Below, piece by piece: positions 735 through 15,961 of a stretch of DNA of 20,241 nucleotides. A program made the position numbers and the translations under genes. The notes beneath the pieces were generated by a model. That model made no database searches and had not been told where the DNA came from. It was given only the letters and a program-made list of their open reading frames with translations. This DNA comes from a virus (lineage: Duplodnaviria; Heunggongvirae; Uroviricota; Caudoviricetes). The stretch covers positions 1 through 20,241 of the IMG/VR virus record IMGVR_UViG_2802429219_000017. The stretch is one strand, 5' to 3'. The number at the start of each line of letters is the position of its first letter. The stretch's first letter is position 1.

Positions 735-1811
735 TCAGAGCAGTAAGTACGTTTTTTCTCTCTCATCAAGATACATTTTTGTTGTCTTCTCCGATGTGTG
801 GCCAAGTAGACGCTGAGCAAATTCTTCTCCACATGTTTCTTTGTATAATCGTCCAGCCAGGCTTCTGATCTCGTGAAAAGTTGGTGGGTTTTCACTGAAC
901 TGGATACCTGTTAATTTTCTGGCTGCAACAAATTTTTTTGTCAGGCCGTCCGGGTGAATGCTTCCGTCAGGGCTGTTTTTTCTAATCCCGGCACTGATTA
1001 GAAAATCTCCCCGGCTTACCAGGCGGCACCGTTCAACTACTGTACCAAGACGTAGACCAGCGACAGGAAGGCTGAGTGACAGGGGGATAGCAATCATCAT
1101 TCCTGTCTTAATTTGCCTGATGTGGAGACGATCATCATAAATATCACTGAACCGCATATTCGTTATGTCTTCGCGACGTTGTCCTGTTACAAGGGCTAAG
1201 TCCATAGCTAATGGGAACCATGTCGGAAGTTGATCTGCTGCCTCCCTGATGCAGTTGTATGTCTTTAGTTTCAGCCGTTCTCTTGTAACTACTATTTTCG
1301 GTGCTCTTGTTGGCGTTACTGGATTTTGAGATATACGCCCTTCAACAATGGCTTCGCGGAACATATCAGATAACACAGAACGCATTGATCCTGCCATCGT
1401 GTTTTTCCCTCCTTCAATCCACAAATCAAGAAACTCGGCAATATGGCGAGTGGTTATTTCTGTCAGTAAAATCCCTCCTAATTTTTCTTTTATTGTTTCC
1501 AGTTGATTTCCCCGAATTTTATAAGTATTTCTGGACACTTTTCTCCTTATAAGAATCGTTTTGTAACGTTCAATCCAGTCTGCCATAGTAAATGAGTCGA
1601 ACCCTTTAAGTTTTTCAATTAAGGCAGCAGGAGAGTAGTTTTTGTATATATAATGATTTGCTTCAATTGCCTGCGCGATTGCATCTCTTCTTGAAATTTT
1701 ACCTAGTGTAAATTCTTCTTTCGTCAGAGGGTTGCGCCAGTAATATGCTTTGTCCCTCCTTCGATATGTTAAGTTCCTAGGCAAATTGGGATCGTATTTT
1801 TTCCGCTGCAT
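735..1811 (-). CDS. int: Phage tyrosine integrase, lambda Int family (358 aa)
   Basis: Translation aligns by eye with lambda Int along its length (N-terminal arm-binding region NLPRNLTYRRR, C-terminal ...PTFHEIRSLAGRLY...LLGH... catalytic region). Confidence 0.9.
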   Translation of the reverse strand: MQRKKYDPNLPRNLTYRRRDKAYYWRNPLTKEEFTLGKISRRDAIAQAIEANHYIYKNYSPAALIEKLKGFDSFTMADWIERYKTILIRRKVSRNTYKIRGNQLETIKEKLGGILLTEITTRHIAEFLDLWIEGGKNTMAGSMRSVLSDMFREAIVEGRISQNPVTPTRAPKIVVTRERLKLKTYNCIREAADQLPTWFPLAMDLALVTGQRREDITNMRFSDIYDDRLHIRQIKTGMMIAIPLSLSLPVAGLRLGTVVERCRLVSRGDFLISAGIRKNSPDGSIHPDGLTKKFVAARKLTGIQFSENPPTFHEIRSLAGRLYKETCGEEFAQRLLGHTSEKTTKMYLDEREKTYLLL

Positions 1812-14407: not shown

Positions 14408-14719
14408 TGTCGGGATGCCGCCCGAAAGGGCGGTAATAAAAATGGCTGAACTAATCGGAGAACAAAACGATGAAAAACCGTAAGGCAAAGATGCTGATAG
14501 CAAAGCCCGGGCAGCGTATCCGTATCTCAAATCGGCTTGTTATTTACTATAGATATCTGGGTTTTAGGGGGTGTTCCTCTATTCGTTTTTACGGTGTCTG
14601 GCGGAGCAGAAGCGCGGCGCAAAACCGCTGGAAAAACCACTTGCGCACTAAAGGAGAGTGAGGTGCCTACACTATTCAGGAAGCTACACAATAAAATTAA
14701 CCCACATAAGGAAACAGAT

Positions 14720-15298
14720 ATGGCAACTATTACCAGAGAAAGCGCAGAGATTAAATCATTCATCACTGGCTTTCTGAGCGATGCGGCGCACGATAACCAA
14801 TCTTCAAACAGTCTGCTTGCTAATGTGTTTCGTATCGCGCTGGCATCGCTGGAAGCAAAACCAATAGGTGCATTCCACATTGCAGAACAGCAAGTTGACG
14901 GTACAAGTGACTACCTCAAGGATGGAGAATGGCCTATTGATAATGGAATTATTGAGGTCTACGCCGCTCCCCCCGTTCCCGTAATACAGGCTGATGTCGC
15001 GCAAGCAATTGAAAATCTCAAGCAGAAGTTAGTGGAATGCAATCGCTATAACTACTGCGCAGATGCAGTTAAAGGTGTTGAGGATGCCTGCCGCGCAGCC
15101 ATGCTTCAGGGGAAAGACGATGGTATCCTCACCAATGAGGATACCAAAGGGGACGTTCAGGTACGGGAATTAACAATGCTGATTAAACAACTGGTTAGCC
15201 AATTGAGGAAAGCGAAGCCGGACTGCAAATTACCGGAGAAGGCGATGGTCTACCTGAAGCGAAACGGACTGATAAGTGCAGAGGATGTTTTGCGATGA
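14720..15298 (+). CDS. Hypothetical protein (192 aa)
   Basis: AAGGAAA SD before the ATG at 14720; the track ORF extends to 14537 but that N-terminal part looks non-coding. Soluble, acidic. Confidence 0.6.
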   Translation: MATITRESAEIKSFITGFLSDAAHDNQSSNSLLANVFRIALASLEAKPIGAFHIAEQQVDGTSDYLKDGEWPIDNGIIEVYAAPPVPVIQADVAQAIENLKQKLVECNRYNYCADAVKGVEDACRAAMLQGKDDGILTNEDTKGDVQVRELTMLIKQLVSQLRKAKPDCKLPEKAMVYLKRNGLISAEDVLR

Positions 15299-15378
15299 CC
15301 TGGCCTGAAGCATTCACAACGGTAGGAATTGCAATGGCGGTGGCGCTGGTGGTGTATTCGATTTGCCGCTGGGGATAA
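15295..15378 (+). CDS. Candidate 27-aa hydrophobic peptide, start overlapping the preceding stop
   Basis: Hand-translated: MTWPEAFTTVGIAMAVALVVYSICRWG; ATGA overlap with the 14720-15298 stop. One predicted transmembrane helix. Confidence 0.3.
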   Translation: MTWPEAFTTVGIAMAVALVVYSICRWG

Positions 15379-15588
15379 AAACGATTTGCGGGAAAAGGAT
15401 AGTTAAGTAGAATTGCTGCGGGTGCTTGAGGCTATCTGTCTCAGGCATGAACACCAAAGGCAGATAGAGAAAAGCCCCAGTTAACATTACGCGTCCTGCA
15501 AGACGCTTAACATTAATCTGAGGCCAATTTCATGCTAGACACATGTAGGTTAGCCTCTTACGCGCCGAAAGGCAAGGAGAAGCAGGCT

Positions 15589-15744
15589 ATGAAGCAGCAA
15601 AAGGCGATGTTAATCGCCCTGATCGTCATCTGTTTAACCGTCATAGTGACGGCACTGGTAACGAGGAAAGACCTCTGCGAGGTACGAATCCGAACCGGGC
15701 AGACGGAGGTCGCTGTCTTCACAGCTTACGAACCTGAGGAGTAA
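15589..15744 (+). CDS. hok: Hok/Gef-family type I toxin (HokD/RelF-like, 51 aa)
   Basis: MKQQKAMLIALIVICLTVIVTALVTRKDLCEVRIRTGQTEVAVFTAYEPEE matches my memory of the Hok family. AAGGAGAAG SD. An in-frame upstream ATG at 15532 gives a mok-like leader. Confidence 0.85.
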   Translation: MKQQKAMLIALIVICLTVIVTALVTRKDLCEVRIRTGQTEVAVFTAYEPEE

Positions 15745-15810
15745 GAGACCAGGCGGGGTAAACCCCCGCCACCTCTGATGTGTCAGGCATCCTCAATGCA
15801 CCCACACTTA

Positions 15811-15836
15811 ACCCGCTTCGGCGGGTTTTTGTTTTT
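15811..15836 (+). terminator. Rho-independent terminator of the hok transcript
   Basis: ACCCGC-TTCG-GCGGGT followed by TTTTGTTTTT. An upstream hairpin GGCGGGG-TAAA-CCCCCGCC (15752-15770) resembles a hok fold-back element. Confidence 0.7.
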
Positions 15837-15961
15837 ATTTTCAACGCGTTTGAAGTTTTGGATAGTGCCGGAATAGAATCAAAAATACTTAAGTAGCGCG
15901 CAGGGAGAAGAGGGATGGACCCCGAACAGGGGAGTGCTATTTATCTGGAAGGATTCTGTTG

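Follow-up and report, generated by a model that had tools for sequence, protein, structure and literature searches.

The stretch of DNA analysed here, called the window, comprises 20,241 nucleotides of a viral record (IMG/VR IMGVR_UViG_2802429219_000017, positions 1 to 20,241). An initial annotation, made from the letters alone, proposed a complete hok-type type I toxin locus with characteristic RNA structures at 15379-15840, and implied a Sok-like antisense RNA on the minus strand that it could not place exactly. The locus thus raises the question whether an intact toxin-antitoxin module or a relic of one is present, where its antisense RNA would lie and what the module might do for the prophage that carries it.

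From its sequence, the segment 15386-15836 very probably represents a complete and intact hok/mok/sok type I toxin-antitoxin locus of the hokD/hokW clade. The locus appears functional as well as complete, but its family has been described thoroughly and it is already known: it is an ordinary copy of a module commonly carried by Escherichia lambdoid prophages.

Toxin gene and leader reading frame

The coding part of the locus comprises the following features.

15520-15523, plus strand: Shine-Dalgarno sequence of mok (GAGG), 8 nt upstream of the mok ATG and invariant in alignment A2
15532-15744, plus strand: mok leader open reading frame (ORF), 70 codons, in frame with hok and ending at the same stop codon
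15574-15579, plus strand: Shine-Dalgarno sequence of hok (AAGGAG), 9 nt upstream of the hok ATG and conserved in alignment A2
15589-15744, plus strand: hok toxin ORF, 51 aa, Pfam PF01848 (HOK_GEF)

The Hok identification, on which the initial annotation had made its proposal depend, held. The product was matched by the Pfam profile over the full profile length with 82.9 bits (cut-off 22, E = 1.2e-23). The NCBIfam Hok subfamily model gave 48.5 bits for the same protein, under its cut-off of 73. In the closest E. coli matches the corresponding gene is annotated hokD in RefSeq, and the window protein is identical to HokD/RelF of E. coli K-12, its gene carrying one synonymous DNA difference from MG1655 hokD. 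In the program-made list, 17 ORFs of at least 20 aa overlap the region.

The upstream leader ORF that had been described as in frame with the toxin (ATG at 15532, 70 aa) corresponds to mok. Its homologue in phage 933W is annotated mokW, and the mok Shine-Dalgarno sequence of plasmid R1 is the same GAGG motif (PMC9841398). The mok start lies at −57 relative to the hok ATG and, because the two are in frame, a full read of mok gives Hok with a 19-aa extension. This is the commonest arrangement (19 of 29 aligned loci); a start at −58 with a long out-of-frame overlap was found in five of the 29, and a start at −56, giving a 19-codon ORF that ends at the hok ATG, in two. In R1 numbering the mok AUG occupies 116-118 and the hok AUG 174-176, and the substitution G176T makes a mok stop codon (PMC9841398); given this numbering and this substitution, canonical R1 mok would be of the −58, out-of-frame type. 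One R1-type plasmid variant carries mok in frame. Such variability of frame fits the published view that translation of mok matters and its product does not. It is conceivable, if unlikely, that the in-frame arrangement gives rise to a Hok isoform extended at its N-terminus that has a separate function.

Transcript of the hok gene

The putative promoter, the transcript and the elements within it are as follows.

15386-15413, plus strand: hok promoter, −35 TTGCGG (15386-15391), 16-nt spacer, −10 TAGAAT (15408-15413)
15420-15836, plus strand: full-length mok-hok mRNA, about 417 nt, placed by the start of the RF01794 match at 15420, the GGGTGCTTGAGG box and the terminator
15420-15431, plus strand: tac (translational activator), at the mRNA 5′ end, pairing with 15791-15803 (full-length RNA) or 15472-15478 (truncated RNA)
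15432-15467, plus strand: 5′ hairpin CTATCTG...CAGATAG, in the Rfam consensus structure
15472-15478, plus strand: ucb, anti-Shine-Dalgarno box AGCCCCA, pairing with the mok Shine-Dalgarno region 15520-15524 or with tac 15420-15427
15553-15557, plus strand: dcb (downstream complementary box, GCCUC), inside the Sok promoter, pairing with 15520-15524 in the minimum free energy (MFE) fold of the truncated mRNA
15752-15770, plus strand: 3′ stem-loop GGCGGGG-UAAAC-CCCCGCC, by analogy the expected protective 3′ end of the processed mRNA
15791-15803, plus strand: fbi (fold-back inhibition element), CCTCAATGCACCC, complementary to tac with one bulged T
15810-15836, plus strand: intrinsic terminator of the hok mRNA, 7-bp stem (15810-15827) with 5 G-C pairs, 4-nt loop, T-run

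The span first proposed for the locus, 15379-15840, encloses both the start of the hok −35 and the transcript end near 15836. Comparison of complete chromosomal and prophage loci of six genera shows a TAnnAT −10 that lies 6 nt upstream of a GGG 5′ end, which supports a 5′ end of the window mRNA at 15420, where the conserved box is located. Sequence farther upstream of the hok −10 is unrelated among these loci, and the hok −35 is weak and without conservation. A consensus promoter scan reported an unrelated plus-strand site at 15850-15879 and the terminator alone; both the hok and the Sok promoter were below its threshold. It is thus conservation across genera, together with homology, that supports the two promoter assignments, and not agreement with the consensus.

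An Rfam search had been suggested as a check. Model RF01794, named 'sok antitoxin', matched 15420-15594 over the full model length with 117 bits (gathering score 59, E = 1.8e-26), and this match, together with that to Pfam HOK_GEF, bears out the hok-type type I toxin locus. The match is on the hok-sense strand, as it is in 933W (L001 1542-1716) and in an R1-type plasmid (L003 332-503); in 933W sokW is annotated antisense, yet the RF01794 match there is sense. The model is 157 nt long and extends from the mRNA 5′ end to the hok AUG. What RF01794 describes is therefore the open (tac/ucb) form of the hok leader. Being on the sense strand, its match confirms the leader and does not give the position of Sok, and a strand and length for Sok taken from it would be wrong.

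The elements that had been listed at first were all found at the places given for them; the 3′ fbi box, the most diagnostic element, had been missed. The inverted repeat CTATCTG (15432) and CAGATAG (15461) is the hairpin enclosed by the tac/ucb stem. The 3′ hairpin is made up of GGCGGGG at 15752 and CCCCCGCC at 15763, and the terminator behind it is intrinsic, its stem being followed by a T-run. The roles of ucb are those defined for R1, where dcb likewise lies within the Sok promoter and from which the role of the 3′ stem-loop as the end of the processed mRNA is taken (PMC9841398). The idea that the short variant of this stem-loop is unique to the window was rejected, since an identical one occurs in 16 complete E. 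coli genomes.

Predicted placement of the antisense RNA

The features assigned to Sok and to its target hairpin are the following.

~15540 to ~15466, minus strand: putative Sok antisense RNA, about 71-75 nt, placed by sokW transfer, conserved promoter and terminator, and fold
15547-15575, minus strand: putative Sok promoter, −35 TTGCCT (15575-15570), 17-nt spacer, −10 TAACCT (15552-15547)
15479-15517, plus strand: hairpin complementary to the Sok stem-loop, with an apical GCGTC/GACGC extension flanked by TTAACATTA
15491-15506, plus strand: GCGTC/GACGC apical extension, the tip of the hairpin common to Sok and its target, on opposite strands

The associated Sok-like RNA that had been left without a position can now be assigned one, with predicted ends good to within about 3 nt. 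The 933W sokW annotation was transferred by alignment and maps to window 15540-15470 on the minus strand; promoter and terminator conservation across genera and the predicted fold agree with this placement. The Sok promoter sits inside mok. Its hexamers are identical in the window and in hokW-sokW of 933W, and in hokW-sokW the sokW −10 was found by mutation to be required for antitoxin activity (PMC8621323). The −10 matches the consensus at 3 of 6 positions. Transcription would start about 7 nt past the −10, near 15540. The 5′ tail of the candidate is single-stranded and complementary to the mok AUG and to the spacer between Shine-Dalgarno sequence and AUG; the stem-loop that follows (15524-15474, GCCUCAG...CUGGGGC) has a 5′ arm complementary to the mok Shine-Dalgarno sequence, and UUUUCUCU at 15473-15466 provides the terminal U-run. 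The 75-nt candidate folded with −30.3 kcal/mol (z = −5.3), and none of 200 shuffles folded as well. The promoter hexamers, the GCCTC/GGGGC stem and the T-run keep their position in loci of Escherichia, Kluyvera, Photorhabdus, Pantoea and Erwinia.

The GCGTC/GACGC inverted repeat (15491 and 15502) and the flanking direct repeat TTAACATTA (15481 and 15507), both pointed out by the initial annotation, belong to an apical extension of about 17-18 nt. It is an insertion relative to the Rfam consensus, makes the Sok hairpin some 17 nt longer than that of R1 and is common to the 12 hokD/hokW-clade loci in alignment A2. Because TTAA is palindromic and two G·U pairs can form, the TTAACATTA repeats pair together in Sok; the mRNA strand has C·A mismatches at these positions, which make up an internal loop.

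Predicted structures and their conservation

Folding of the full-length RNA (15420-15836) without constraints gave an MFE structure in which tac (15420-15431) pairs with fbi (15791-15803) through 12 pairs and ucb (15474-15478) pairs with the mok Shine-Dalgarno region (15520-15524). This fold has −172.4 kcal/mol (z = −7.6), which none of 100 shuffles equalled. In the MFE structure of an RNA ending at 15773, directly behind the 3′ stem-loop, a fold that is sensitive to the chosen 3′ end, tac pairs instead with 15472-15478 (ucb), the mok Shine-Dalgarno sequence pairs with dcb (15553-15557), and the mok AUG is presented on a hairpin whose loop, CUAGACA (15535-15541), is complementary to the first bases of Sok. 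A YUNR U-turn motif is reported for antisense target loops, and the start of this loop, CUAG, fits it. The two predicted states reproduce the published switch of plasmid R1, with its closed form (tac/fbi and ucb/mok Shine-Dalgarno) and its open form (tac/ucb and mok Shine-Dalgarno/dcb) (PMC9841398).

When the RNA was ended at 15786, tac was paired with 15438-15455 rather than with ucb, and this fold was not taken as evidence; its 5′ hairpin resembles a metastable one known from R1 hok mRNA in its nascent state. A pairing of the mok start with 15771-15790 is not ucb/dcb by the definitions in PMC9841398.

For the comparison, 53 related loci were fetched and structure was counted on a MAFFT alignment of 29 distinct transcripts. 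Across these 29 loci, 85.7% of cells were paired in the full-length structure against 40-43% when partners were slid by 1-3 columns; as the tested structure is the MFE of the window itself, one member of the alignment, the paired percentage is inflated relative to the slid controls. Cells changed on both sides numbered 174 (42-68 when slid), and the covariation score was 0.171 (about 0.07 when slid), values that none of 500 shuffles reached. The 5′ hairpin (helix 2) was 92.8% paired, with three pairs changing on both sides, and the 3′ stem-loop (helix 19) was 96.1% paired over the same loci.

The long-range helix was also sought without bias. In each locus, every 13-mer from the stretch 100-260 nt ahead of the hok gene was compared with the 170 nt behind its stop codon, and the best duplex was taken. 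For most complete loci the search settled on one 5′ box, GGGYGCTTGAGR, and on a 3′ box located 45-57 nt past the stop. Compensation from U-A to C-G is seen in the tac/fbi helix: Escherichia has GGGTGC/GCACCC, Photorhabdus GGGCGC/GCGCCC. The apparent pairing of the distal half of this helix is reduced in Photorhabdus by a register shift of one base. Across the 29 related loci, which come from six genera, compensatory changes maintain the pairings of the switch.

Related loci

Relatives of the 462-bp span were found in 4942 of 5426 complete E. coli genomes, at a median of 2 and a maximum of 10 places per genome, and the gene under the span is annotated hokD among the matches listed. The span is also matched by 79 phage records, including 933W and VT2-Sakai (Sp5).

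The closest known system is hokW-mokW-sokW. Phage 933W, in which mokW, hokW and the antisense sokW are annotated, is 93% identical to the window at the nucleotide level over the locus, and VT2-Sakai has the same identity and bit score. Like the window locus, hokW-mokW-sokW of 933W/Sp5 has an in-frame mok of 70 codons and an apical extension of the Sok hairpin, and is carried by a lambdoid phage. It differs in the C-terminal residues of the toxin (FVDYESEK in HokW, FTAYEPEE in the window) and in its longer 3′ stem-loop; 933W moreover diverges after about 15808, whereas the window has a K-12-type terminator behind fbi. The differences between window and 933W preserve base pairing.

K-12 hokD (relF), in the Qin cryptic prophage, shares near-identical DNA with the window over a stretch that runs from the hok Shine-Dalgarno sequence to the terminator and takes in the 3′ stem-loop and fbi. 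In place of all that precedes about 15576 it has relE sequence, and it therefore lacks the promoter, tac, ucb, the mok start, and Sok with its −10, all of which the window has. Locus hok/mok/sok (parB) of R1 shows the same order of tac, ucb, mok Shine-Dalgarno sequence, dcb, hok, 3′ stem-loop and fbi, and the same predicted conformational switch; the Rfam leader model matches both. The Hok proteins of the two are only about 44% identical (PMC8621323). The R1 locus is a plasmid locus with a mok that appears to be out of frame, that of the window a prophage locus with mok in frame.

Broken copies were seen among the relatives: a chromosomal copy of E. coli ECMA0423 (L044) reads into an 89-aa frameshifted product, and in a Shigella flexneri copy (L048) the transmembrane segment is scrambled. 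Near-identical hok sequences also occur in very short contigs (L018, L023) labelled Acinetobacter idrijaensis (275 bp) and Xanthomonas pisi (431 bp), and a phage record (H28) labelled as an Actinobacillus pleuropneumoniae phage carries a hok that is 95% identical. These records are likely due to contamination or mislabelling.

Genomic context

The genes of the prophage follow the order lambda-type integrase, RecT, RecE, cI-like repressor, DnaT-like, P, DUF1627, hok locus, DUF1367 and DUF1133/Q-like. The prophage is lambdoid and Rac-like, and the locus is flanked by its replication genes on one side and its Q-like antiterminator on the other. As a whole the window is a mosaic, and none of the complete E. 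coli genomes reaches 80% coverage of it.

Positions 1-734 of the window are chromosomal flank from the yebY side, with SdsR/RyeB and SraC/RyeA at 463-607. The integrase gene (735-1811, minus strand) directly adjoins these small-RNA genes, which suggests SdsR/RyeA or its immediate vicinity as the integration site. Identity of the flank is 90-95% for 5404 of the 5426 complete E. coli genomes and 80-90% for the remaining 22, with 92.5% as the best value; to judge from this sequence, the host is therefore probably not E. coli but another species or clade of Escherichia.

The prophage contains another type I toxin-antitoxin RNA, RalA, the antitoxin of RalR, at 2169-2347 on the plus strand (Rfam, 214 bits); an 86-aa ORF lies on the opposite strand (region 2165-2425). 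Directly upstream of the hok locus, a 253-aa ORF (14537-15298) gave no Pfam match. Its stop codon is overlapped by the ATG (ATGA) of a hydrophobic 27-aa ORF, MTWPEAFTTVGIAMAVALVVYSICRWG, at 15295-15378, just upstream of the hok promoter. Two related loci conserve this small ORF fully (100%), a third does so to 96% and 933W to 81%; it has no annotation in the 933W/RefSeq records examined and no Pfam match.

Discussion

The mechanism can be assigned with high confidence from homology and structure prediction, on the basis of the window sequence and its homology to R1 hok/sok and hokW-sokW. A weak constitutive promoter would produce the mok-hok mRNA of about 417 nt. In this full-length RNA tac would pair with fbi and the mok ribosome-binding site would be held by ucb, so that, as proposed, the RNA is neither translated nor bound by Sok. 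Slow trimming of the 3′ end back to the GGCGGGG/CCCCGCC stem-loop would then remove fbi, upon which tac would pair with ucb and the mok start region would be presented on the hairpin with the CUAGACA loop. The short, unstable Sok would pair with this region and block translation of mok and, by coupling, of hok, and the duplex would decay. Once the supply of Sok stops, the pool of stable mRNA would be translated and the 51-aa Hok would damage the inner membrane. Processing of the 3′ end, RNase III cleavage of the duplex between Sok and mRNA, and membrane toxicity of Hok have been described for R1 and partly for hokW-sokW (PMC9841398, PMC8621323). For the window copy itself we infer the transcript ends, the 3′ processing, the expression of Sok and the toxicity.

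That the ORF and hairpins are chance features of prophage DNA can be dismissed: the general abundance of short ORFs is all that speaks for it, to be set against the Pfam (1.2e-23) and Rfam (1.8e-26) matches, fold z scores of −5 to −8 and covariation across six genera. A second rival is that the locus has decayed and lost its function, like several hok loci on the E. coli K-12 chromosome, so that homology would still reveal it although neither Hok nor Sok could be expressed. Decay is evident among the relatives: K-12 hokD is truncated, its homology with the window starting near 15576 at the hok Shine-Dalgarno sequence with relE upstream; a K-12-like copy (L007) gave no Rfam leader match; L044 and L048 are frameshifted or scrambled; and the promoters of the window match the consensus weakly. 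Yet in the window the hok −10, tac, ucb, the mok Shine-Dalgarno sequence and ATG, dcb, the Sok −35 and −10, the hok Shine-Dalgarno sequence, an uninterrupted hok ORF, the 3′ stem-loop, fbi and the terminator are all present and match intact relatives. In that comparison no element was missing or disrupted, and the inactivating changes that the initial annotation had considered were not found. As the Sok promoter hexamers are moreover those of the functional hokW-sokW and the differences from 933W keep base pairing, we consider a relic highly improbable.

The biological role is the least certain step. On the analogy of hokW-sokW, the most likely role of the intact module would be to speed up lysis and phage release on induction, an argument that draws on one study of one related prophage, Sp5. 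There, HokW was toxic and was located at the inner membrane; sokW under the control of its native promoter neutralised it, and mutation of the sokW −10 unleashed toxicity; sokW RNA was lost after mitomycin C in a RecA-dependent manner, and deletion of hokW-sokW halved the release of Sp5 phage (PMC8621323). Stabilisation of the prophage or exclusion of other phages is possible, additionally or instead. Were addiction or abortive-infection defence the main role of the intact module rather than aid to lysis, this would accord with R1, where hok/sok stabilises plasmids by post-segregational killing and is reported to reduce plating of T4 (PMC8621323, PMC9841398), the latter an effect in the opposite direction to aiding phage release (PMC8621323). 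It would also accord with the wide spread of the family, with relatives in 4942 of 5426 genomes and at up to 10 places per genome. The presence of several hok/sok copies per genome cuts the other way as well, since cross-acting Sok RNAs could weaken addiction, and in the sole direct test, for which the closest relative was used, the effect on phage release after induction was positive. We therefore hold addiction or defence as the main role to be doubtful, though it keeps appreciable weight, and prefer the reading in which Hok promotes phage release.

How induction might lead to release of Hok can be considered from the orientation of the locus. Since hok and the early-right operon (cro, the replication genes and the Q-like gene) share one strand, antiterminated read-through after induction might run head-on into the Sok promoter and shut off Sok, an idea that we regard as unlikely. 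If it were true, read-through would give 5′-extended hok transcripts in which tac is no longer at the 5′ end, the release of Hok would be hard-wired to prophage induction, and the RecA-dependent loss of sokW in Sp5 would be explained.

Beyond correct annotation the locus has little significance of its own, its nearest relative having already been characterised by experiment. Genome pipelines call the hok coding sequence alone here and miss mok, Sok and the long-range RNA elements. The window copy represents the complete ancestral form of the gene that is left in E. coli K-12 as the truncated hokD.
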